NCBI GenBank assembly: GCA_963702895.1
Contig: OY969767.1
Location: 1,088,001-1,152,000, forward strand
DNA: 64,000 nucleotides
Source: an uncultured Elusimicrobia bacterium
GTDB taxonomy: Bacteria > Elusimicrobiota > Elusimicrobia > 2-01-FULL-59-12
Direction of reading: 5' to 3'
Part shown: piece by piece, positions 9,912-23,288 of the stretch
Position numbering within the stretch: position 1 is the first letter of the stretch
How the letters are laid out: every line of letters starts with the position of its first letter
The notes under the pieces: generated by a model
The model's input: the letters and a program-made list of their open reading frames with translations, nothing else
Database searches by the model: none
What the model was told of the DNA's origin: nothing
Position numbers and translations under genes: made by a program

Positions 9912-11099
9912 TCAGGCATCGAACCAATCGCCCGGCGGCGCCGAGAAAAACTGTTCCAGCGGTATGCCGCCGGATCCGACGACAAGCGCCTTCGCCTTGG
10001 GAAATCGCTTTTGGAACGCCATCAACCCGCTGAGGCGGCCAGGGCGGCCGCTCTTGACTTCCAGGGCGAGCACGCGGCCGGCGCGTTCCAGCACGTAATC
10101 CACTTCCTGATCACCGTCCCGCCAATAATAGACCGGCTCGCCCGGGAGCTGATTCACAAGGTAGCCCCCCACCGCATTTTCGACAAGACGTCCCCAATGG
10201 TCCGCCGAGTTGCGCACGGTCTGGTACGCCAGCCCGGGCCATGACGTCAAGAGCGCGTTGTTCCAGGTGACCAGCTTGGGGCTTGCGGCCCGCTGCCGGG
10301 CGACCCCCCCGCTCCAGAGATTTAAGCCGCTGACCAGATAGGCCGATGACAAGAGCTCCAGGTAATGCGCCAGCGTCACCGTGTTGCCCGCGTCCTGCAG
10401 CTGTCCGAGCATTTTATTGTAGGACAGCATTTGTGCCGGATGGTGCGTCGCGAGCCGGTACAGCTGTCGCAGAAGGGCCGGTTTGGTGACGGGGCTCAGC
10501 TGCAGCACATCCCGCGAAATCACGGCCTCCACCAAGGAGCTGGAAATATAGCGCCGCCATCGCTCCGGCTCTCGGGCCAGCGGGGCAGCCCCGGGGTAGC
10601 CCCCGTAAAAGATCCAGTGATCGAGCGACCAGCGAAATGCCCGACGGCACTCCGGCCAGCTCCAGTGCGGACAGTAATGAAGTTCAAAGCGGCCGGCCAG
10701 GCTTTCCCGGGCGTGCTTCTGCACATGCAGCGATGCCGATCCCAAAATAATCGCGCGAACATCCGTGCGCTCGCGGCGATCCTGGTCAAAGCACGCCTTC
10801 ACGACCTCGGCCCAGCGCGGCACTTTCTGGACTTCGTCGAGCGCCAGGACGACGGTCTTGTTGCGGCTTTTCGAGAGTTGGCGGGCCGATTGCCACTGGG
10901 ATTGAATCCAGAAGGCATCGGGAGGCGCCGGCAGATCCGCGGAAGCATAGACGCTCGGCCCCCGCCATGCCTTGAGGACTTGTTCCACGGCCGTGGTCTT
11001 GCCAACCTGGCGGGGGCCGACGACGATCTGCACCCCATGGGGCGGCGACTTCAGCCTCCGGGCAAGCACCCCTACCAGATCCCTTTTCAGCAGAGCCAT
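9912..11099 (-). CDS. AAA ATPase (AAA_14/DUF4143 type) with C-terminal PD-(D/E)xK-like domain
   Basis: GPRQVGKTT, LDEVQK, GSAS, ESLAGR, GGYP, ENAV, EVDY...LEVKSG. Confidence 0.9.
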   Translation of the reverse strand: MALLKRDLVGVLARRLKSPPHGVQIVVGPRQVGKTTAVEQVLKAWRGPSVYASADLPAPPDAFWIQSQWQSARQLSKSRNKTVVLALDEVQKVPRWAEVVKACFDQDRRERTDVRAIILGSASLHVQKHARESLAGRFELHYCPHWSWPECRRAFRWSLDHWIFYGGYPGAAPLAREPERWRRYISSSLVEAVISRDVLQLSPVTKPALLRQLYRLATHHPAQMLSYNKMLGQLQDAGNTVTLAHYLELLSSAYLVSGLNLWSGGVARQRAASPKLVTWNNALLTSWPGLAYQTVRNSADHWGRLVENAVGGYLVNQLPGEPVYYWRDGDQEVDYVLERAGRVLALEVKSGRPGRLSGLMAFQKRFPKAKALVVGSGGIPLEQFFSAPPGDWFDA

Positions 11100-11182: not shown

Positions 11183-11320
11183 TGCTACTAAGGGCCTAAG
11201 TCAAACCATGGGCCTCTTGGCCCTGTATATTTGGTCTGCCGGCCCATTTATCCACCGTCGAAGAACCCTTAGAATTGAATATCTGTCGAACGCATGCGCG
11301 TGTCGCGTTCGGGGATATCT

Positions 11321-14300
11321 ATGCCTAAATGGATTGTACGCATCGTCGCTTTGCTTCTGGTTCCCTGCCTGGCCGGGGATGCGAGCTCCACACTACCGGC
11401 GCTCGCCCGCCCTGATGTGTGGCGGGCGTTATTCCCGGCCGGTGCCGCCACCTTTAAAGACTGGAAAGCGGCGCTGGTCGCAGATCCAGCTCTGGCATCC
11501 GCGTATGCCTCGTATCCCCAAATGTCACCCGACATCAGACCGCTGAGCCGAGCTAAGGAGGCAACGGACCCAGCCGTTTTTGAATCACAGGCCCTGATCC
11601 TCCCCCTCTGCGCCATGCTGCTCGTCGGCGCCGCCGGGAAACCGTTTCTCCATACCTACCGCGCGCTTTCTGGATACACGCAAGCGCTTGGATCGACGAA
11701 GCGCCGAGGCGGGCCAAGAGGTATTACTCGCAGAAAGAAACAGCCCGGCAGATTGACGCATCAACGGTCCCGCAGGTCGTCCGGTCACCATGCAATCGCA
11801 CAAAGGCCAGGAACGTCATTAACGCGTCCGGTCTATCGTATGGGAGTTCAAATACAACGAGTGATCTTTCCGATCGTCAAAGTCTTCGCTCTCGACGATC
11901 AAGGGGGCTGGCTGGAACGTACATTTGTGTTCCAGTATTCCAACCTCCATGAATTCAGAAAGACAAAACATCCAATGCCTCACTACTTGAACGTAGAGGA
12001 TGATCGAATAAAGGAAACCATTCGGTATCTCGCGGAGGCGATTGCGCCTGGTCTGATTAATACAGCAAATGGCTTTTCTCTGGGAGATCTGATTCGCAGC
12101 ACCACGCCCCTTGGCAGCGGCACGATCGAGATTTTCTTTTCCGTATCGATGGTCGATGAGGAATGGGTCATTCAACACGAGAGCCAACAACATATTGAAG
12201 GCCGTTTGGGAGAAGTGCTTCTACGCGCTTTCCACGATCTTCATCCCTCTCAAAACACGCCTCAGCCAGAATCTGGAACAGTTTGGTTCGAGGCATCTCC
12301 TGCTCCCGCTGCCGCGCCGGACAGTGCTGCATCTCATCGGCCAGCCCGTGGGGGTTCCTCGTTCGGTAAACCGCGCGACGAGCGTCACTATCCGTACGGA
12401 ATCGATGGACCCAATAGCCGCTGGTGGAACCGCTTTCCTTTGTCCCCTTCGCCAGTCCCCAGTCTGAGCCGGAGCGGCCGCCACGGCATGCCGGGCGTGC
12501 CGGCGCTCTCCCGCGGGAACAATGACGCTCAGAATGGGCCGAGACGGTCTCCCTCCGGAGCTAGAGATGCAGCGAGTCGGGCGACGAGTTCCTTCTTGGT
12601 GAGAAACGACCATCTTTTCTACGCGACGGACTACGATCCCCCTGCGCTGCGGGCTGATGTGCGATTAATTCGTCACGGGGAGACCCTTGGGCAAAAACGC
12701 AAGATATTCCAAGGGAACCGGGACAAAGCACAGAATCAATTGGGCGAGGAAGGCCATCGACAAAAGGTTAGCGCCGCAGCTCTCTTATTCCGAGATTTTG
12801 AAGACGTGCTGCGAACGTCGCCGGAGGATATCGTCATCATCGAGAGCCCCTTGGGTCGCGCCGTCGACACTCGCAAAGCGTTTACGGACTTGGTCGCTAA
12901 GCGTTTGAAACGTTCACTCACCGTGGAGACACTGGACTTGGCTCGCGAAATCGATTTTGGCCGGTGGGACGGCCTCAGCGAAGAGGAAATTCTCAAGAAG
13001 TGGGGCCTGGACGAATTGGAGCGTGCGAAACGCTATCGTTACGAGGTTGACCCGACGGTTGTCTCGGAGGGTGGAACGTCTTACCTGGATTTCTTGACCC
13101 ACCAGGCAAGCGATCTGTTGACGTACATTAACGAGAAACACGCGGGCAAAACGGTGCTCCTCTTCGCCCATGGAACATTGGGAAGCGCTCTGAGCGTATT
13201 GCTGTCATACCCCGAAGTGGTCACAAAAGAAGGTCACATTGACTGGCGGGCAATGAATATTCCAAACGCCGTGCCCTTTCAATTGCAGCGCTATTCGCGA
13301 CCCGCCGCGGATTCGGCTACGCCCACCGCGGGCCAGCCCGCTAGCCCTGAGCGGTTCGGCAGGCTCACCGCAAGCGAGCTCGCCCTGAGCGAAGTCGAAG
13401 GGAGTCGAAGGGCCGCCGCGCCGGATACGGCGGACACGGAGACAACAGAAACACCGACACGGGGACGCGGAGAAACACCCATTGAAGTTTCCCCGCGTCA
13501 CCCCGTCGCCGCGTCTGCGCGTCCGACGTCCGATCCCGCCGCCGCGTCAACGGATCCTGACAGTATCGGATCCACAGACGCCAATAAGGATCATCGACAT
13601 CACCCACCCATCGGCAATAACCCGCACGATGTCCCCGCCGCACAGTTCCCTGTTCGACCCGCTTGGGTCTATGAGCCTTCGGTTCCACAGGAAATGAGGT
13701 CTGAATTGGAGGATATGCTCCTAAAAGGACCTCATCTGCGATCGGTTCTGGAACGCGCTGCAGATAAGACGCGGCACCCGGTCACAATTGCATTTCAAGC
13801 CTATATGAACATTGCGGCCAGAATGGGATATACCCCCGAAATGGGATATTCCATTATGTTTTCTCAGGAATGGTTGGACGATAATGAACCAAACGCATTG
13901 GGCGCTCTTGAACATGAAGTAGCACACATCGGGGTCTATGTCGACGGCATCGCTAACCTGGAGGATGACCGAACTTTTCAGACGAGTATGAGAACCCGTC
14001 CTCGCAATGATTTCTCCCATTCCGTATTGCAAGCGCTCTCCGATTTTATTGCAGTTTGCTATCAGCTCGAGCTAAATTGGGTATCGGCCGCCAGTTATAT
14101 CCTGGACGTGGTCGTCGCGCTGAATCAAAAGAGTCATGCTCGGTGGGTCAACATGGCGCCCGGGGAACAGACGCGACAGGCTGCTTTCCAATATGCACTG
14201 CACTATCTACGGAGTTTTATGGCTTTTGATCATGAGAACAGGGGCGTTGATCCTGCGACTCGCGAAACCTTTACATTGGCCTTCAAAGACATTTTAACAA

Positions 14301-17300
14301 CCGAGGAAATGACAGTAATCCGTGAAGCGCTCAACGAATCACTGAGGGGCATTCCCCTCACCCATTTGACTCATGCAGACTTTTTTGATGCGTTATGCAA
14401 TAAACTCTACACGCTCGTAGGCTCACTTGCTAAACATTCTCGCGCTGCCGCGCCGGGCACAGCCGACACGGAGACACGGGGACCCCCCGCCACTGAGGCA
14501 TTGGCGGGTCCGCCAAGAAGTAGTGGCGGAGGAGACACGGGGAATCAAGGAGCAAGCGATGGCCCCTCCGCTTTTGACGTTTCCCCGCGTCCCCCCCTCC
14601 CCGCGTCCCCGCGTCCGACGCCCAAACCCGCCGCCGCGCCGCCGACAGTCGAACCGGCGAATGGGCGAGCCGGCGATCTGGCGAAAGACCCGCCAAATGG
14701 TTCGCCGACACACCCCGTCGCCAAGTCGCTGACTCGACCGTCCGATCCCGCGTCGGGTTCGACTTCGCTCACCACAGGCCCTGAGCGAGCGGGAGCGAGT
14801 CGAAGGGCTCCCGCGCTGGAAAGTGCTGATGTGAGAAATGGTTCAGAAGAATTGGACATTCTAAGCCCAACAATCGACGCTTTGGTCAATCAATTGTGGA
14901 AAAGCATTTCACTCAATGACGCTGTGGGAAGATCACAAGCGCGGCGAGAATTGGAAGCCCTTGGGTTTAGTGTTCAAATTGGATTTTCACGTGAAATGCA
15001 TCCATATTCTGATCCACAACATATTGAAGCGCTTACGATTTATCAGACGTTAACGAAAATGGCGACTCCTGAGCAGCTCCGCTCCATCCGAGACGTTCTT
15101 TCGCATGGGATGCAAAATATCGCCAAATGGGGAGGTGGCAGAGGATTTTTATTAATGCGGCTGAATACCGAAGCAAGGGCCTTTCAAATTGTGATGGGAG
15201 ATTCTGGATTGGGAATCACATATGGCGAGGGGCCTCTGAAAGGCAGCCACGCACCGATTCATGAGGCGGTAAAACTCGGACAATCGTTCGCTGCTGGAAG
15301 CGATGGGGGAAAAGGGCTGGCTTATATGGTGATCGATCTCGACGACGTCTCTGTCACTAGCATCACCCCTGAAGACGGAGTTGCCCGCGGCCATTGGTGG
15401 AGAAAAGGATGGCAACGAGAACGCAGATTGAAGAGTAATCAAAACTTACCCTCACAGGGATTAAAGATTGTTGGCCAAAAACTTCTTGGCCCCGCCGCCG
15501 CGCCCGCCACTACACCGTTGGCGGGCAAGCCGGGCGCAGCCGACACGGGGATCGATTCACCGCGTCCCCGCGTCCCCCCTACTCCGCGTCATGATCTCTC
15601 CGCGTCACCGCGTCACCACGTCGCCGCGTCTGACTCTGTCACGGAGCCCGCCGCCGCGCCGGAACGCTTGCCCTCCCAGTTGAAAGGGAAATGGGCGTGG
15701 TTGTCGAATGCCTGGGGGGAAGCGTTCCATTGGCTCCTGGCTCCGGCGTTTGGGTTTCAAGACGCCCGGATGGTCTGGCAGAAGGACCAGGCTCCTTACG
15801 TGCATGTCCCCGGCTTGCCGGCCCGCGGCGTCCGGGCGTTTCTAATGGCGGCCGTGCATCCGCTGATCAATCTTTTCTGGACCCTTTTCCCCTGGCTCAT
15901 TTGGGACCAGCTGGCGGGTCTTCCTCAAGGCCCTCCGGCCCAGATCCTGATCACCGCGCTGATTCTTCACGCCGTCCTCAACGCCTACGGTTTTCTGGGC
16001 AACCTGATCAGCTCCTACGTTTCCCTGGTCCCATTGACTTTCTATGAGTATGACCGCGCCTCCGACCACCGCTTGATCGCCCGGCCCCGTTTCTCTATTT
16101 CCGTTCCGCGGTGGGAGGTTAAAGCCAACTCGGACTGGAACCGGATGGTTTACACGCTTTCGCTTGGGCGTCTTGGCCGCAAACCGGAGGGGGATGACCT
16201 TCATTCCGAACTGCCGCGGGGCGCCACCCCGGAAGACCGCGCCGCGTCGCCGCGTCGCCGCGTCCCCGCGTCTGCGCGTCCGCCGTCCTATCCTGCCTCG
16301 ACACCTCTTTCGTTCAAGCAGAAACAAGCTTTCATTCTCGCTCACGAGGACCGTCTTGGGGACCTCAAAAACCCTCGCCATAAGCGCGTCTTGCGCAGAT
16401 ATTTCCTGGAAGGAAAGACGCAGGAGGTCTTGGCAGCCGAATTGGGTCAAGGCCAGAGCTCAGTGTCTTCATTAATAGCACGGGCTTTCCGAGCGCTTCT
16501 TGATTGGGTGTATCCCGATGAAGCGTCAGACCTCAAATTTGTGCGTGATCACGAAGACCGCCTTAGGGAACTCAACAACCCTCGCTATGAGAGCATTTTG
16601 CGCGGGTATTTCCTGGAAGGAAAGACTCACGAGGTCTTGGCAGCTGAATTGGGTATCTCCGTTCGCTCAGTCTCTGACTCAAAAAGAACAGCCATCCGAG
16701 TTTTTCGTGATAAGGTGAACCCTGATGAAGCGTCAGACCGCAAATTTGTGATCGACCACGAGGGCCTGCTTGGGCAGCTCGCTCCTTCCCAAGTGCGCGC
16801 ATTGACCGGGTATTTCCTGGAAGGTAAGACCCTGCCAGAATTGGCGCACGCTTACGGCATCACAAAACAGGCGGTGGCCGAAGCAAAAGACCTCGGCTTG
16901 AGACAACTGCGAAGATGGGTTAAAACTCATGAGTCGCTTCTCCAGGCGCTCGTCGAGATGGATGGGTTGGTCACAGTCACGCGTATCAGCCGCCAGGTCG
17001 GGGTGACTGCGCTGAGGGTCAATTCTCATGGGGGTGTCACGGGACTGGTCGCTGAAGCGGCACCGCTGCGCGCGCTAGCGAGGCTGGAAGCGGGTCCCCT
17101 TTTCACAACGAGGCCGAAAAGAGACCTCAGTCTTCGGGACAAGGGAATGACGCGACACCGGCAGGCGACGGGATTGCCGCCGCCGGCGAAGGAACAAACC
17201 AAAGGGAATTCCTTCCAGGAATCTGTGAATGCCCGATTCAAATCGGGAACGAAGTCTGAATTGACGGAATTCCTGGGAAGCTTAACGTCTGATCAACGGA

Positions 17301-19171
17301 ATCGATTAACGGATGTTCAGCGCCGTTTGCTTCTTTTTGTCTGGCTTTTCATCGATGACCCTATGGGCGGAGACCATTACGGAAAAATTGGTGAAAAGCT
17401 AATTGATTTCCCGATGCAAACATGGATTCTCGGGGACCAATCCGAGCGCCAATCTGATCCGTGGATTGCCATGACCGGGGTGGCAAAAACTCTGCAATCT
17501 TTCATCTATGAGCTAAGCTTTCACTGGCAGCGTGGGATCCCCTGGCGCCGAAAAACGATGATTGATGCTTTACAAGGTCCCACCACGGACTTGCTGGGCG
17601 CCGATACATACCAACGATTGGCCGTCTTAGCGAGGGAGCGTCGCTATCCAAAGAAGGGAAATCGCAGCACCCGTTTGGCCGGGATAGACTCCGATGACAG
17701 GATTGTTGATAGCATCGGTGGCATGGACTGGGCCAGGGGTGAATGGTTCAGCAAATACATTGACACGCCGTATTATGATGCTTATGCAGGTCTTATTCTC
17801 GCCCCTACCGCTGCGTCGAATGATCCGACAAAAATAAATCCAGCCCAGACCCCGCTAGCGCGCGCCCTCTGGTTGAAAATCGCCGGGAAAAGCGCGACCA
17901 ACACCCGGGCGGAATCCTGGTTTACGGCGGTCCTCGAATGGCTTCCCTGGCTGGCGCTGGTGGGGGCAGCGGCGCTCCAAGCCCTGCATTCGCCGAGTGG
18001 TTATTCCTGGCTGCTGATCCCGGTCAGCGCTTCGATCGCGATGATCTTTTTATACGCCCTGCACGCGTGGGTCCCCCGGTGGGCCCCGCCAGGCGTTGAA
18101 CGCGTAAAAGTCGGGCGCGAAACATGGCCCCTGGCGGCCGGCTTGTTTGCTGTGGACGTCTTGGCGGGCTTCTCGGTGGCTTGGGGCGTGGGGTTGGCGG
18201 CGGTGCCACTCGTTCTGCTGGGGTGGTTCCTTCACGCCAGGCACGACCGGCGAATCTTCAATCAACGGACGACAGGCGACCGCGATTTTGGAAAAACGGG
18301 ATTGAGATTCTTTGTCCTTGGCCTTGGAACGATCTGGCTTGGACGGCGGTGGCCGCCCGGTAACGCCAGCTATTCAGATCCTTCCGAAGAGGAAATCGAT
18401 AAACATCTTGAAGAAGCGTTCGTCTCGATGGGGAACAAGGACGGTGTCGTCATGCTGGATACCGCGGCCGCCTACGGCCGATCGGAGGAGCGCCTCGGGC
18501 GCTTCTTGCTAAAACGTCCCGATCTGGCGCGACGCGCTTTTATCGCCACGAAGTGGGGTGAGGAGTTTGATCCAGTGACGAACCGATCGTGGAAGGATTT
18601 CTCGGTTCAAAATCTGAGGGCCTCTTTCAAGCGGAGCCAGGATCACCTTGGCAAAGTGGACCTGCTTTACATCCACATGTCCACGGACGCCTCCGCGGAT
18701 GTCCTGCGCGACGAGGCTGTGCGGCAGGAGATGGAACGTATGAAAATCGATGGGGAGGTGCGGCTCATCGGCGCATCGATCTCCAATGAAGCGATCCTGG
18801 CCGAGGCTATAGAACAAGGCTCACTGAATGGCTTCGATGTGATCCAGATGCCGGCCCCTCTCTTTTTGAAGCGGCCCGCTTTGGCTTCGGCCTTACACCA
18901 ACGTGGCTTCGCCGTTGTTCTTAATTCCCCTGTCCGCAAAGCGGACAATCAGAATCCCGAAAACGCAATCCGTGAATTGGCCAACCGGCCCGAGGTTTCC
19001 ATGATTCTCACGGGGACCCGGATGCACCTGGGAGAAACGGTGAGCTACCTGGGCACACCTCCCAGCGCGCCCAAAGGAAGGCTTCCGCTTTGGCGGCAAT
19101 GGAAAAACTGGCTGTTTGCGCCGGCGGATAAAAACGCTCGCTTCTCTCATCGGGTCCGGGCTGCCGCGTAA
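11321..19171 (+). CDS. Giant mosaic multidomain protein (signal-like leader; histidine phosphatase; HExxH domain; GHKL ATPase-like; TM blocks; 3x sigma70 region-4-like HTH; aldo-keto reductase)
   Basis: Uninterrupted ~7.85-kb ORF; GGGGA before ATG 11321; motifs RHGET/SPLGRA/EIDFG/AHG, LEHEVAH, N..K + DSGLGI + GKGL, repeated YFLEGKT..LA.ELG, GLGT/DTAAAYG.SE/ATK/DLLYIH. Confidence 0.85.
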   Translation: MPKWIVRIVALLLVPCLAGDASSTLPALARPDVWRALFPAGAATFKDWKAALVADPALASAYASYPQMSPDIRPLSRAKEATDPAVFESQALILPLCAMLLVGAAGKPFLHTYRALSGYTQALGSTKRRGGPRGITRRKKQPGRLTHQRSRRSSGHHAIAQRPGTSLTRPVYRMGVQIQRVIFPIVKVFALDDQGGWLERTFVFQYSNLHEFRKTKHPMPHYLNVEDDRIKETIRYLAEAIAPGLINTANGFSLGDLIRSTTPLGSGTIEIFFSVSMVDEEWVIQHESQQHIEGRLGEVLLRAFHDLHPSQNTPQPESGTVWFEASPAPAAAPDSAASHRPARGGSSFGKPRDERHYPYGIDGPNSRWWNRFPLSPSPVPSLSRSGRHGMPGVPALSRGNNDAQNGPRRSPSGARDAASRATSSFLVRNDHLFYATDYDPPALRADVRLIRHGETLGQKRKIFQGNRDKAQNQLGEEGHRQKVSAAALLFRDFEDVLRTSPEDIVIIESPLGRAVDTRKAFTDLVAKRLKRSLTVETLDLAREIDFGRWDGLSEEEILKKWGLDELERAKRYRYEVDPTVVSEGGTSYLDFLTHQASDLLTYINEKHAGKTVLLFAHGTLGSALSVLLSYPEVVTKEGHIDWRAMNIPNAVPFQLQRYSRPAADSATPTAGQPASPERFGRLTASELALSEVEGSRRAAAPDTADTETTETPTRGRGETPIEVSPRHPVAASARPTSDPAAASTDPDSIGSTDANKDHRHHPPIGNNPHDVPAAQFPVRPAWVYEPSVPQEMRSELEDMLLKGPHLRSVLERAADKTRHPVTIAFQAYMNIAARMGYTPEMGYSIMFSQEWLDDNEPNALGALEHEVAHIGVYVDGIANLEDDRTFQTSMRTRPRNDFSHSVLQALSDFIAVCYQLELNWVSAASYILDVVVALNQKSHARWVNMAPGEQTRQAAFQYALHYLRSFMAFDHENRGVDPATRETFTLAFKDILTTEEMTVIREALNESLRGIPLTHLTHADFFDALCNKLYTLVGSLAKHSRAAAPGTADTETRGPPATEALAGPPRSSGGGDTGNQGASDGPSAFDVSPRPPLPASPRPTPKPAAAPPTVEPANGRAGDLAKDPPNGSPTHPVAKSLTRPSDPASGSTSLTTGPERAGASRRAPALESADVRNGSEELDILSPTIDALVNQLWKSISLNDAVGRSQARRELEALGFSVQIGFSREMHPYSDPQHIEALTIYQTLTKMATPEQLRSIRDVLSHGMQNIAKWGGGRGFLLMRLNTEARAFQIVMGDSGLGITYGEGPLKGSHAPIHEAVKLGQSFAAGSDGGKGLAYMVIDLDDVSVTSITPEDGVARGHWWRKGWQRERRLKSNQNLPSQGLKIVGQKLLGPAAAPATTPLAGKPGAADTGIDSPRPRVPPTPRHDLSASPRHHVAASDSVTEPAAAPERLPSQLKGKWAWLSNAWGEAFHWLLAPAFGFQDARMVWQKDQAPYVHVPGLPARGVRAFLMAAVHPLINLFWTLFPWLIWDQLAGLPQGPPAQILITALILHAVLNAYGFLGNLISSYVSLVPLTFYEYDRASDHRLIARPRFSISVPRWEVKANSDWNRMVYTLSLGRLGRKPEGDDLHSELPRGATPEDRAASPRRRVPASARPPSYPASTPLSFKQKQAFILAHEDRLGDLKNPRHKRVLRRYFLEGKTQEVLAAELGQGQSSVSSLIARAFRALLDWVYPDEASDLKFVRDHEDRLRELNNPRYESILRGYFLEGKTHEVLAAELGISVRSVSDSKRTAIRVFRDKVNPDEASDRKFVIDHEGLLGQLAPSQVRALTGYFLEGKTLPELAHAYGITKQAVAEAKDLGLRQLRRWVKTHESLLQALVEMDGLVTVTRISRQVGVTALRVNSHGGVTGLVAEAAPLRALARLEAGPLFTTRPKRDLSLRDKGMTRHRQATGLPPPAKEQTKGNSFQESVNARFKSGTKSELTEFLGSLTSDQRNRLTDVQRRLLLFVWLFIDDPMGGDHYGKIGEKLIDFPMQTWILGDQSERQSDPWIAMTGVAKTLQSFIYELSFHWQRGIPWRRKTMIDALQGPTTDLLGADTYQRLAVLARERRYPKKGNRSTRLAGIDSDDRIVDSIGGMDWARGEWFSKYIDTPYYDAYAGLILAPTAASNDPTKINPAQTPLARALWLKIAGKSATNTRAESWFTAVLEWLPWLALVGAAALQALHSPSGYSWLLIPVSASIAMIFLYALHAWVPRWAPPGVERVKVGRETWPLAAGLFAVDVLAGFSVAWGVGLAAVPLVLLGWFLHARHDRRIFNQRTTGDRDFGKTGLRFFVLGLGTIWLGRRWPPGNASYSDPSEEEIDKHLEEAFVSMGNKDGVVMLDTAAAYGRSEERLGRFLLKRPDLARRAFIATKWGEEFDPVTNRSWKDFSVQNLRASFKRSQDHLGKVDLLYIHMSTDASADVLRDEAVRQEMERMKIDGEVRLIGASISNEAILAEAIEQGSLNGFDVIQMPAPLFLKRPALASALHQRGFAVVLNSPVRKADNQNPENAIRELANRPEVSMILTGTRMHLGETVSYLGTPPSAPKGRLPLWRQWKNWLFAPADKNARFSHRVRAAA

Positions 19172-19229: not shown

Positions 19230-19293
19230 GTGATTAGGCAGGTTCTCCTTGAAAAATTAAGCAGGTTGGCTGAGAGATTAGGTAGGCTCCTCC
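19230..19293. repeat. Tandem ~21-bp repeat array 1 (3 units)
   Basis: GATTAGGCAGGTT / AATTAAGCAGGTT / GATTAGGTAGGCT at 19232, 19255, 19276. Confidence 0.75.
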
Positions 19294-19303
19294 CAGAGAA
19301 GCG

Positions 19304-19816
19304 CTATTCATGCTTGAAGCCTTTGATCCGTAATGGGGCATCCGCCGGCTTTGCCATCAGCCCACGGATCGCGTCGAAGACCACTTTAAATTGCGCGTCG
19401 TATTTGTTTTCCAGCTCATGCAGCTTGCGGGCCAAGTCTTTGTGAGTGGCCAACATCTCTCTGATCCTTACAAAGGCATCCACAACCGCGAGGCTTGCTT
19501 TCACGGCGGTCTCACTATTGAGAACGCAAGCCAGCATGATCGCGCCATGCTCCGTGAAAACAAGGGGCAAATAACGTCGCCCTCCGTGGGCCATTCTTGA
19601 GGTCGCATTTTGCGACCTCAAGCGGCGCGCTTCCCCTTCGGCAAGCTGGAACATATATCGAGGCGGGAACCGGATTCGATTTCGCTTCACCTGTTCATTC
19701 AAACGTTTGGTCGTTACTCCATAGAGTTCCGCCAGATCTTCGTCCAGCATCACTTTATATCCACGAATCAGATAAATATACTGCTCAATCTTGATGCTCG
19801 GTACAGGTTTATTCAT
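19304..19816 (-). CDS. ORF6N (KilA-N-like) DNA-binding domain protein
   Basis: IRG.KVMLD.DLAELYGV.TK.LNEQVKRN..RFP, FTEHGA.MLA.VLNS; GGAGGAG SD before ATG 19816. Confidence 0.9.
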   Translation of the reverse strand: MNKPVPSIKIEQYIYLIRGYKVMLDEDLAELYGVTTKRLNEQVKRNRIRFPPRYMFQLAEGEARRLRSQNATSRMAHGGRRYLPLVFTEHGAIMLACVLNSETAVKASLAVVDAFVRIREMLATHKDLARKLHELENKYDAQFKVVFDAIRGLMAKPADAPLRIKGFKHE

Positions 19817-19959
19817 GGGCTCCTCCTCTCCCTTAGATGGAGAACACCCGAAAATATTCACTGCTTAGACAAAGAGTTCAGACCCATCCGAGAACCCATT
19901 GCGTTTCGCATTTCGCCTTTTACATTCTTCATTTTGACTTGAGACACACCAGCGGTCGC

Positions 19960-20274
19960 AAGAGATGAAGCAGCTTCGTCAAAGATTAGGCAGGTTCCCC
20001 TGGAAAGATTAAGCAGGTTCACGGAAAGATTGAGACGGCTCCTCGAAGAACGAGACGGTTGGTCGGGAAAGAAAGAGACGGTTGGCAAAGAGAATGAGAC
20101 GGCTCCTCGAAGATTAGGTAGGTGACCCCGGAAAGATTAGGCAGGTTGGCCGAAAGATTAGGTAAGTTCCTCGAAGATTAGGTAAGTTCCCCGCGAAAGA
20201 TTAGGTAAGTCGACCGAAAGATTAGGTAAGCTGGCGGAAAGATTAGGTAAGTTGACCGAAAGATTAAGCAGGTC
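19960..20274. repeat. Tandem ~21-bp repeat array 2 (~15 units, 64-bp higher-order period)
   Basis: Core GAAAGATTAGGTAAGTT; spacings (20,23,21)x4 then 21,21. Confidence 0.9.
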
Positions 20275-20577
20275 TGTCCGCGCCGGACGGCACGGGTTGG
20301 TACAGCGTGGCGGGGTCACGGGGATCGCCGGAGCGCTTGATCAGGCCGCGGTCCATGAGGTTGCCCAGGATTCTTAAGGTGGCCGTGCGCGAAAGGTTTA
20401 GCAGCTTTTCCACATCCTCCCGGCGCAGGCCGGCGCTCTGGCGCGCGGCGTCCAGGATCATCTTCTCGTAGCGTTCCCGTTTGCGGCTGACCCAGCGGTT
20501 TTGGGTGGAGGGGGGCAGGGGGTGACGAAGGCGTCGGCGCCGCGGCCTGGCCTTCGCCCTCGAGCTGTTGTTTGAGC
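20264..20577 (-). pseudogene. 5'-truncated, frameshifted paralogous copy of the 3' part of the 22545-23288 gene (wHTH domain)
   Basis: High DNA similarity to 22545-22857; one extra G in the G-run near 20511; TM-encoding 5' part absent. Confidence 0.85.
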
Positions 20578-20699
20578 CCCCGTGCGCCTTTTCAAACAGG
20601 TCGAACAGATCAGGTCAAGCAAATCCAGGTTCCAAACACGCTTCATCGCAAAGGATGTGGAAGGCGAGCGCAGGGTTCTGTTATACAATCATCGTCAAG

Positions 20700-21347
20700 A
20701 TGACGCCAAAGGATCGTTACGATGTGTCCGATTTGCCGGAGGCGCAGTTTGAGCCGGGCTCACGAAGGCAGGTTCTGCGCAATCGTTTAGGCATCAGAAC
20801 GATTGCCGCCATGGAGAATGCCGAAGAGCTGGCCTTGAAAAAGGCGACAGACATTCTTCTGCATACCTACTCAAAGGACCATCGCTTTAAGGCCAATGAC
20901 ATCCGTCATATGCACCGGCTTTGGCTATCGGACATCTACGGCTGGGCAGGCAATTATCGGAGGGTCAATCTGAGCAAGACGGGATTCATGTTTGCTGTTG
21001 CCCAGCACGTTCCCGGATTGATGCAGGAATTTGAAACGACTGCTCTGAAAGAATGCACCCCTTGTCATCCTGGGGATATTGAGACGATTGCAGAACATTT
21101 GGCGAAGGTCCACGTTGAACTCGTGCTGATACACCCCTTCCGGGAAGGAAACGGACGTGTTGCCCGGCTACTCACGACCTTCATGGCGCTCCAGGCCGAT
21201 CTGCCGCTCCTGGATTACAGAAGCATTCTGGGGAAATCGACACCCGTTTATTTTGCCGCCATTCAAGCGGGCATGAAACGAGACTACTTGCCCATGCGGA
21301 AAGTGATGAAATCAGTGATTGCGCGTACGCTCAGGCGGCTTTCTTAA
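20700..21347 (+). CDS. Fic family protein (AMPylase)
   Basis: HPFREGNGRVAR motif; VL.N.LGI, YGWAG.YR.V. Confidence 0.93.
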   Translation: MTPKDRYDVSDLPEAQFEPGSRRQVLRNRLGIRTIAAMENAEELALKKATDILLHTYSKDHRFKANDIRHMHRLWLSDIYGWAGNYRRVNLSKTGFMFAVAQHVPGLMQEFETTALKECTPCHPGDIETIAEHLAKVHVELVLIHPFREGNGRVARLLTTFMALQADLPLLDYRSILGKSTPVYFAAIQAGMKRDYLPMRKVMKSVIARTLRRLS

Positions 21348-21501
21348 ACAGGCGTATTTTCTGCTTTAAGGTGCGGAGCGCCGTGGCAAAAGAACCCGTT
21401 TCGACGGCGGTAGAAGAGGCGACGTTCAGCGTGAGCGCCTTTTCGTATTTGCGCCGGTCTCGAAGGTAGGGGCTCGTCGCCAGCAGTGATTTCTTTTTCA
21501 T
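21331..21501 (-). CDS. Small 56-aa protein, putative Fic antitoxin
   Basis: Manual translation MKKKSLLATSPYLRDRRKYEKALTLNVASSTAVETGSF...; S-xxx-E inhibitory-like motif; TGnTAGACT -10 box 6 nt upstream. Confidence 0.6.
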   Translation of the reverse strand: MKKKSLLATSPYLRDRRKYEKALTLNVASSTAVETGSFATALRTLKQKIRLFKKAA

Positions 21502-21567
21502 GAAACAAGTCTACCATGATGGCCGCACCAATTCCAGACTTCCCAGCCGTTGCAGAAAGGACCTCCT

Positions 21568-22314
21568 ATGAAATTCGAGCTTTCTGACGAACAACTGAAA
21601 AATCTGCTGGTTCTGGCGTATCTGGGCGAATGGATGGCTAATGCGACCAGGGAAGAGCCGATCAAAGACTATGAGCAAGCCGCTTCCAGGATTTACGCCC
21701 TGGCCCAAGGAACCGCGCTGGAGCGCTACGTGGACTACGATGATCAGTCGCGGCGGTGGTGGCCCAGCAAGGAGCTGGACGAAGCAGCGGAACCGTTGCG
21801 CAGCGATTATGACGATGAGACGTTCTGGGACGAACTGCTGGACCGCCTGATCGACCGGGACCTTGCCGCAACATACGGGGTTGGGATTTTGGGTTCGAAG
21901 GACCGTGATAAATATTGCGCCCTGCGAGAGCCGATCGAGTCACGCTACGGGACGGAGTTTGAACGCTTTGGGATTGATCGCCTCAAGCTGCCCGAGGGTC
22001 TTCCTGAAGAAGACGCTTACTCCCCCTCGCCGGCCCAGGCGACAGCGATGGGCTTGGCGTGGTACCGGTCCGATCAATGGGAACAGCTTCGGTCCATCTC
22101 CGCGGACCGCGATGAGCTCGAAGAAAGATACGTGGAATGGTTAAAGACCGCTTCTAACCTCTTTTCCCAGCTCACGCTGCGGGGTCAAGAGATCAAAAAG
22201 GTATTAGTGGACGTCAATGATCTCGCCAAATGGTGTAAAGCCAAGGGCCTTCTTGTCGATTCCCATTCCCGATCTGCTTTCGTCGCGGACCAGCTCCGAA
22301 CGACGAAGTCCTGA
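21568..22314 (+). CDS. Hypothetical acidic protein, apparently two fused domains
   Basis: AAAGGA SD before ATG 21568; protein-like composition; Pro/Ala linker before GLAWYR..QW domain. Confidence 0.75.
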   Translation: MKFELSDEQLKNLLVLAYLGEWMANATREEPIKDYEQAASRIYALAQGTALERYVDYDDQSRRWWPSKELDEAAEPLRSDYDDETFWDELLDRLIDRDLAATYGVGILGSKDRDKYCALREPIESRYGTEFERFGIDRLKLPEGLPEEDAYSPSPAQATAMGLAWYRSDQWEQLRSISADRDELEERYVEWLKTASNLFSQLTLRGQEIKKVLVDVNDLAKWCKAKGLLVDSHSRSAFVADQLRTTKS

Positions 22315-22391
22315 CAAGCATCCGCTTCCCGGAGGTTGGCAGTACGAATGAGCGCCGAAGGACGCCAAAGCGACCCGAGGCCGGATTGGCA

Positions 22392-22555
22392 AATAGATTA
22401 ACCGGGTTCCTCGAAGATCGGGCCGGTTCCCCGAAAGATTAGGCAGGTTGGCCGAAAGATTAGGTAAGTTCCTCGAAGATTAGGTAAGTTCCCTGCGGAA
22501 GATTAGGTAAGTTGGCCGAAAGATTAGGTAAGTTAACCGAAAGATTAGGCAGGCT
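22392..22555. repeat. Tandem ~21-bp repeat array 3 (8 units)
   Basis: GATTAGG-type cores at 22396, 22416, 22437, 22458, 22478, 22501, 22522, 22543. Confidence 0.9.
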
Positions 22556-23288
22556 TGTCCGTCGCAGCCTGCCCGGATTGGTAGAGCGTGGCGGGGTCAC
22601 GGGGATCGCCGGCGCGCTTGATCAGGCCGCGGTCCATGAGGCTGCCCAGGATCCTTAAGGTGGCCGTGCGCGAAAGGTTCAGCAGCTTTTCCACATCCTC
22701 CCGGCGCAGGCCGGCGCTCTTGCCAGTGGCGTCCAGGACAATCTTCTCGTAGCGTTCCCGCTTCCGGCTGACCCAGCGGTGTTGGGTGGAGGGGGTAGGG
22801 GGTGACGAAGGCGGCGGGGCCGCGGACTCGCCTTTGGCCTCGAGCTGCCGTTCGAGTTCCTGATGCGCTTTTTCCTCCACGCGGACGCTCAACCACCGGG
22901 AGGCACTCGATCCGATGTAGAACCCGAGGACTTCGAAGGCAATCAAGGTAAGTCCCTTGGGGTAGGCCAGGCGCGCCGGCCAGATCTCGGAGCCGAGCAC
23001 CGCCACGAGCAGGAAGACCGCCCATAGTCCGACGAACCATTCCCCTTTGAGCCGGAAAGGCGCGGGTTGCGTCTCTCCTTCGGCCGCCAGTTTCTCCGGA
23101 TGGAAGCCGATCGTCCACCGGTGGACTTCTTTCCCCCCCACATAAGCCGAAAGCAATGCCAGGTAGAAGGCGTTGGCGGTGCTGACGTTGATCTGGACAT
23201 GAGCGGCGGTGGCGAACTCCGCGACCTGCACGCCGAAAAGAGCCAGGGTGTAGAGCGCGCTCAGCCAGAAAAGAAAGGTCATGCTCAA
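22545..23288 (-). CDS. Four-TM membrane protein with C-terminal winged helix-turn-helix
   Basis: Four hydrophobic segments (YLALLSAYVGGKEVHRW, GEWFVGLW), Pro-rich linker, LRREDVEKLLNLSRTATLRILGSLMDRGLIKR.G....T.Y. Confidence 0.8.
   Translation of the reverse strand: MSMTFLFWLSALYTLALFGVQVAEFATAAHVQINVSTANAFYLALLSAYVGGKEVHRWTIGFHPEKLAAEGETQPAPFRLKGEWFVGLWAVFLLVAVLGSEIWPARLAYPKGLTLIAFEVLGFYIGSSASRWLSVRVEEKAHQELERQLEAKGESAAPPPSSPPTPSTQHRWVSRKRERYEKIVLDATGKSAGLRREDVEKLLNLSRTATLRILGSLMDRGLIKRAGDPRDPATLYQSGQAATDKPA

Follow-up and report, generated by a model that had tools for sequence, protein, structure and literature searches.

The giant gene and its modules

The window, which is the whole 64-kb stretch of DNA analyzed here, belongs to a genome of 2.72 Mb in a single contig (G000) and carries an intact mosaic open reading frame of 2616 aa at 11321-19171 on the forward strand. 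An earlier possible start lies at 11294, and 11321 is preferred because the leaders of paralogues begin with M-P/N-K. The gene adjoins secA amid accessory genes (window 9912-11099 and 19304-23288) that include an AAA_14/DUF4143 ATPase, ORF6N, Fic and a MarR-type HTH, and a repeat at 19232-19292, located 3′ of the frame, recurs about 750 bp downstream and at G000:1600450. The features of the locus are as follows.

11191-11320, +: upstream region, likely promoter/5′ region, common to the paralogue G000:1417227 and the locus G000:2568349
11321-19171, +: giant mosaic ORF, member of the leader/C-terminal-AA family
11321-11665, +: family leader, a hydrophobic signal-like stretch (hydropathy), then DP, then F..QAL
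11376-11428, +: in-frame insertion of a REP-like repeat into the leader, with dispersed copies elsewhere in the genome
11816-12304, +: module 1, AT-rich, with no relative in a search of representatives
12305-12319, +: junction word copy (PAAAP), in frame
12590-13300, +: histidine-phosphatase module, with relatives among standalone proteins and modules of other giants
13301-13312, +: degenerate word (PAAD), the point where standalone phosphatase relatives end
13313-13408, +: REP-like hairpin spacer that is read in frame and resembles 14794-14829 at its 3′ end
13409-13549, +: linker unit 1 (by alignment): word, 8-nt inverted repeat array, word
13634-13645, +: degenerate word (PAAQ) preceding the HExxH module
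13646-14440, +: HExxH (HEVAH) helical module, AT-rich, DUF5781-like lead from language-model features
14441-14641, +: linker unit 2: word, 8-nt array and dispersed REP-like hairpin (14480-14532), word
14816-15490, +: GHKL/HATPase_c-like module, AT-rich, from language-model features
15491-15661, +: linker unit 3 (by alignment): word, 8-nt array, word
15662-16237, +: hydrophobic module 1 (hydropathy), HxxxN at its end
16238-16297, +: 8-nt repeat array
16304-16921, +: three tandem sigma-region-4-like HTH repeats (Pfam), period 207 nt, the first two 76% identical
17198-17803, +: AT-rich module of no known family, followed by a degenerate word at 17804
17819-18280, +: hydrophobic module 2, four predicted helices, HxxxD at its end, with a homologue in family gene L108
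18281-19048, +: aldo-keto reductase module, of a clade that occurs standalone and within other giants
19049-19171, +: basic tail with RAAA-stop at its end, the last codons (19157-19168) repeating the word

The sequence-only reading, an earlier annotation of this DNA, described a giant gene of unrelated modules, and the families recognized here agree with it. Pfam finds His_Phos_1 (aa 449-624), three copies of Sigma70_r4, and Aldo_ket_red (aa 2333-2538), and language-model features give as nearest clusters DUF5781-like proteins of 230-282 aa for the HExxH module (feature score 0.93) and HATPase_c proteins of 173-199 aa for the GHKL-like module (feature score 0.95); a structure model of the HExxH module was uninformative (pLDDT 46). 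The identity of the phosphatase was right, but its homology begins near 12590 and not at about 12.65 kb as first placed. Several modules had also been called AT-rich. This is true of four of them, module 1 (GC 0.49), HExxH (0.49), GHKL-like (0.48) and 17198-17803 (0.50), all of which rank among the 1-3% of genes with the lowest GC in the genome, but not of the phosphatase (0.54) or the reductase (0.57).

A search with the whole protein returned three giants only, with the reductase in common, and searches for shorter proteins with aa 770-1400 and aa 1440-2320 gave no matches among about 8,000 candidates each. Against its own genome, tblastn of the giant protein recovered only the leader of a paralogue and a distant phosphatase. 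No orthologue was found in 40 relatives, where the matches consist of flanking genes and repeats alone, and no gain or loss event is therefore seen in the giant gene itself. The secA-region DNA that flanks it is about 72-77% identical between genera.

The membrane segments of the giant protein are predicted from hydropathy peaks and a low-confidence four-helix model, and the leader may serve for export or membrane insertion. Hydrophobic modules with an E...H...HxxxN/D pattern recur in the window (15662-16237 and 17819-18280) and elsewhere (L096:1180-1578, L098:1533-1970 and L074:3299-3607), and they recall PrsW/CPBP intramembrane proteases; a profile of these modules was seeded on the HxxxN/D motif and is circular as evidence. 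The lead to PrsW/CPBP is weak: the one Pfam match to PrsW has E=0.16 (1 of 10 segments), no PDB sequence matched, and a model with a pTM of 0.35 gave generic helical-bundle matches only (best Z 7.8). Processing proteases of the CPD or C39 type are absent from the giant protein according to Pfam.

The gene is one of a set of large mosaic genes in G000 that share the leader and an AA or SA end. A profile of the leader matches 14 times in G000. Of ten genomes of the same family, 9 have 4-32 matches each, and the tenth (G007, 95% complete) has none. Choosing 40 regions for their long frames among the 150 leader matches listed yielded 47 family frames. Nearly all leader-bearing mosaic genes finish in a basic stretch followed by AA or SA. 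AA is the end of 39 of 63 family frames, 9 of the 63 being cut by contig ends, and of 14 of the 66 genes of G000 longer than 1000 aa. Two relatives in G000 that end in A reach 6.7 and 12.9 kaa. Judged by its free choice of codons, the C-terminal AA looks like a protein-level signal for export or degradation.

Junction words and linker units

A word with the spelling CCC-GCY-GCC-GCG-CC (PAAAP) lies in frame at seven linker sites of the giant gene and, in one further copy, precedes the stop codon. The seven clear copies of the sequence-only reading (12305, 13409, 13535, 14441, 14627, 15491 and 15647) are all in frame, as are the three that it called degenerate (13301, 16238 and 17804), although the copy at 16238 is part of an 8-nt array; the copy before the stop (19157, CGG GCT GCC GCG TAA) had been overlooked. 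With this copy included, the second and third Ala codons are GCC-GCG at 8/8 P/R-AAA sites, which bears out what had been noticed at the clear copies. The same pair of codons occurs in 0/3 AAA tripeptides inside the domains of the giant gene, and genome-wide in 18/101 P/R-AAA and 14% of Ala-Ala. CSCGCYGCCGCG has six matches in the 64-kb window, all of them within the giant gene, where 0.26 are expected. A strict P/R-AAA-P peptide proved too narrow a description, since AAA is preceded by P, R, S, F, Y, T or A and the codons are fixed. The proposal that the motif bounds the modules holds for the first 60% of the gene and fails at the start of the phosphatase and at both borders of the reductase; the last 40% of the gene has degenerate copies only, apart from the one before the stop.

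Our preferred explanation, to which we assign roughly even probability on the strength of sequence comparison, is that the copies of the word are short-homology recombination seams. Not all copies are independent witnesses, as six of the seven sit in three duplicated linker units, which are homologous to each other from word to word and unrelated outside; on this alignment, the seven copies derive partly from intragenic duplication. The same homology lends itself to an explanation in which the word is incidental, being a low-complexity linker that arose from CCG-rich or 8-nt REP-like repeats, spread through intragenic duplication or gene conversion, and has no role in the traffic of modules. 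The unit of the 8-nt array (CCC-GTC-GCC-GCG-TC) is indeed two changes away from the word, and most family genes lack the word altogether, the exact in-frame spelling being present in only 10 of 82 others. Against this origin, the seven other 8-nt arrays of the genome are all without a copy of the word within 150 bp, the 24 nt on each side of the word in L073, L083, L110 and L128 contain neither an 8-nt array nor shared sequence, and no comparable enrichment is seen for other codon orders of AAA. We consider a mere by-product highly improbable.

Two mobile-element origins were also tried and rejected. The word as a target duplication of the 8-nt element fails on the same 0/7 arrays. The word as a target duplication of a five-copy element of G000, which we take to be of the IS110 type, fails because all five copies (G000:90476, 152479, 445382, 504687 and 1715409) sit in a different repeat, at the same insertion point of a REP-like palindrome. 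The REP-like repeat in the leader of the giant gene is absent from the closest leaders (L110 and L128), and it is contained in five tandem 82-bp units at G000:2455074-2455452. In two paralogues (G000:1417356-1427876 and 1401941-1408972), repeated hydrophobic linkers that are near-identical within a gene stand beside the word or replace it.

Spelling of the word across genes and genera

Sites for a wider comparison were picked by the AAAP peptide alone, blind to codons. GCC-GCG is used at 6/6 AAAP in the giant gene, 3/6 in 15 paralogues and 8/11 in the 47 frames of relatives, compared with 4/34 in 1504 non-family genes. Twenty held-out metagenome loci, collected through the leader alone, gave 4/6 after three duplicates were dropped. 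With the giant gene left out, the pooled count over 82 family genes is 16/24, spread over 10 of them, where the Ala usage of each gene predicts 2.96; the nominal p of 8e-10 overstates this difference, as the family genes are related. One relative (L128) has GCC-GCG at 3/3 AAAP, and its exact copies of the word are preceded by P, Y and T. The sequence-only reading had called for junction usage to be set against the genomic rate, and GCC-GCG is enriched in the giant gene and also in independent genes from other genera.

Controls at other Ala-rich positions behave differently. AAA in hydrophobic context has GCC-GCG in 5/54 and 10/49 cases, and the Ala and Pro codons of the leader QAL and DP are dispersed. 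Terminal AA has it in 5/39, so that the idea of the gene end being the same DNA word fails across the family, though the end of the giant gene matches. Searching 11 genomes for the exact 14-mer produced 17 matches, 13 of them in frame in family-type genes, a class that makes up 3.4% of G000 and in which the matches of L113 and L118 were counted by their AA end, their leaders lying outside the locus. Of the other four matches, two lie antisense, one comes after the signal-like N-terminus of an ordinary gene, and the last is outside any long frame. A synonymous rearrangement of the pattern gave 3 matches and the reversed pattern 11, compared with 17, and the signal thus resides in location and not in abundance. 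Conservation spans about 15 nt at the word, with no information or inverted arms outside. Taken together, silent positions that are alike in unrelated genes of related genera indicate that the word is conserved as DNA.

Words of other lineages differ wholly from this one. In L032, the SSP word is spelled AGY-TCN in 19/22 cases, compared with 3/39 for other SS pairs, and its silent third positions vary. This last point fits an explanation at the level of protein, in which the word acts chiefly as a protease site, the polyprotein is cut after AAA, and the DNA spelling is inherited passively as old sites are copied. Cutting would give each module a C-terminal AA, like the natural ends that 39/63 family frames carry with free codon choice, and would release modules that are of whole-protein size. 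The roughly fourfold enrichment of AAAP in family genes points the same way, and the giant gene contains an HExxH module as well as the recurrent membrane modules that end in HxxxN/D. Cleavage has also been proposed for the multi-enzyme giants of Omnitrophota, in the portion of that preprint available to us (West-Roberts et al., 2023; 10.1101/2023.11.21.568195). Under passive inheritance, however, silent sites should decay across genera, where the flanks are down to about 72-77%, yet GCC-GCC-GCG is retained at all six PAAAP sites of the other family genes. Signal peptidase I is blocked by a Pro that follows an Ala-X-Ala site, and the residue that precedes AAA varies. No protease was identified among the modules, the PrsW match being weak (E=0.16, 1/10 segments). 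We regard a word that is mainly a protease site as rather unlikely, although such cutting is compatible with recombination seams.

Possible movement of modules between giant genes

The reductase and the phosphatase of the giant gene are found in other genes. Among 15 close loci of the reductase clade, 5 are standalone, 1 is behind a short leader and 9 are in long mosaic frames, and several of the reductases in giants are bordered by the host's own word (SSP, PQAA, KLASN, AGLEE or DxAM). In a poorly resolved tree with weak support, reductases of giants and standalone reductases do not form two clean groups, and all bootstrap trees require three changes; the clade was not found in viral contigs. 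The weakly supported neighbours of the reductase in this tree suggest Elusimicrobiota as the phylum. The phosphatase clade gave 149 hits, 56 of at most 350 aa and 68 of at least 800 aa, and its homology stops where the giant gene carries the degenerate PAAD. A word lies between -8 and +22 residues from the end of the module in 18/58 scorable phosphatase giants, compared with 1.9 expected, on a word list that was drawn up after the data had been viewed. From these alignments, the shared phosphatase and reductase modules are whole-gene sized and stand beside the host gene's own word.

A gain or loss of a segment at a word is seen in a pair of Omnitrophota-type genes (L031 and L033), where an indel of 806 aa is flanked by 832 nt of 98.2% identity on one side and 1000 nt of 93.5% identity on the other. 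The switch falls in an 11-nt direct repeat that encodes the PQAA word, with 806 residues gained or lost. The pair belongs to another lineage with a different word, and a deletion can start from any direct repeat. The idea of a DNA junction, already put forward by the sequence-only reading, is supported by the codon test, by the ends of linker homology, by modules that end at host words and by this indel.

Such junctions could also be made by a dedicated integrase acting in trans, possibly RNA-guided or lineage-specific, which would insert DNA at the word, duplicate the word and build in frame, in the manner of integron or CRISPR-type acquisition. The sharp bounds of the word at about 15 nt are consistent with this, as are module clades flanked in each lineage by the recipient's word, non-coding-like REP spacers that are word-bounded too, and the three changes, weakly supported, between giant and standalone reductases. 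An integrase site would be at odds with the lack of information or inverted arms outside the word and with words that are wholly different between lineages and tolerate silent change. The absence of an adjacent recombinase, noted before, was upheld, as the recombinase-like genes of G000 (four tyrosine of PF00589, one serine, three reverse transcriptases and one weak Y1 hit) all map outside the 64-kb window, and Cas1 was not found in G000. Reverse transcriptases occur in 4/11 genomes, and two word-bearing genomes (G001, 73% complete, and G006, 96%) gave none. The occurrence pattern gives no support to a reverse transcriptase, Cas1, Y1 or serine recombinase as the assembler, and the IS110-type element of G000 targets another repeat. 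With no candidate enzyme among these genes, a dedicated integrase strikes us as distinctly unlikely.

Recombination seams would make a dedicated recombinase unnecessary. The giant gene would be a chain of gene-sized modules framed by the family leader and a tail ending in AA. Its in-frame word of 12-15 bp, CCC-GCY-GCC-GCG-CC(G), would serve as a short-homology crossover point, such that word-bounded segments are duplicated, deleted or exchanged by crossover between copies. Crossover between words would keep the frame and pass the DNA spelling to each new junction, which would account for silent-site identity in the absence of a recombinase. The spelling would thus be self-perpetuating, while old copies decay (GCT, GCA or a lost codon). 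Foreign genes might come in through illegitimate replacement inside a segment flanked by words, or be anchored at a single word. A length of 12-15 bp is short for RecA. The codon-locked word likely marks the points where modules enter and leave giant proteins. A broader scheme, in which in-frame gene capture operates across Elusimicrobiota and Omnitrophota, with a lineage-specific word duplicated at each insertion and the same word later serving as the cut site of the polyprotein, is in our judgment unlikely.

Integron cassettes, each a gene-sized unit bearing a core sequence at either end, are separate ORFs with inverted attC arms and are moved by IntI. The giant gene resembles them in the size of its units, in the core sequence that flanks them on both sides and in some hairpin-forming spacers. 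Unlike cassettes, its units are fused in one ORF, the word is without arms (no conservation past 15 nt), no IntI is adjacent (the four PF00589 genes of G000 are outside the window), and the hairpins come from 8-nt arrays that are absent in other word-bearing genes. Closer in kind are the adhesins gp37/gp38 of T-even phages, where short in-frame conserved motifs are proposed as crossover hotspots that swap segments (Tetart et al., 1998, as treated in the available part of PMC12032242); the border motif of the giant gene is likewise in frame and conserved at silent sites. The parts swapped there are homologous hypervariable segments of a structural fibre, whereas the giant family involves whole unrelated genes, a dispersed chromosomal family and a word per lineage.

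MARTX toxins (PMC6315884) and polymorphic toxin cassette systems (PMC3482391), as far as the available parts of these sources describe them, also carry a changing set of enzyme domains, exchanged by recombination, between ends that are conserved, and the MARTX domains are released by cutting between them (PMC6315884). MARTX is an analogue only; no RTX repeats or CPD were found in the giant gene. The immunity genes and silent downstream cassettes of polymorphic toxins were not found either, the neighbours of the giant gene being AAA ATPase, ORF6N and Fic genes.

Giant proteins of multi-enzyme type are described for Omnitrophota (West-Roberts et al., 2023) and as class 1 by Nielsen and Lui (2026; 10.64898/2026.06.07.730766), and huge proteins have been noted in Elusimicrobiota (PMC11573180). 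In the parts of these papers available to us, such giants are like the present gene in that a single chain joins enzyme domains of unrelated, cytoplasmic types; the signal-like start and membrane segments of such giants have predicted counterparts in the present gene. By our searches, the reductase and phosphatase module clades are common to both. They differ in size, as 2616 aa is under the papers' cut-offs of 5-10 kaa or more. Within the same parts, the three papers describe proteins and not the assembly route or cut points of long mosaic chains; they mention no junction motif, and "linker" has no hits in the main texts. In the literature searches made here, no description of such junction words or of a DNA-level test in giants was found. 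A junction conserved as DNA would provide exact coordinates for the movement of modules and possible cutting of the chain, and would allow giant genes to be parsed into units. It would also extend motif-anchored exchange from phage fibres to whole enzyme genes moving into chromosomal polyproteins.

Elsewhere, a reverse-transcriptase domain lies within a 2135-aa open frame (G003:C138:2388-2870) and may have been taken up as a module by a giant gene. In the family genes L130 and L146, which are 90% identical from F..EQAL onward, the middles of the leaders differ, as might result from a leader swap or an insertion at the F..EQAL motif.
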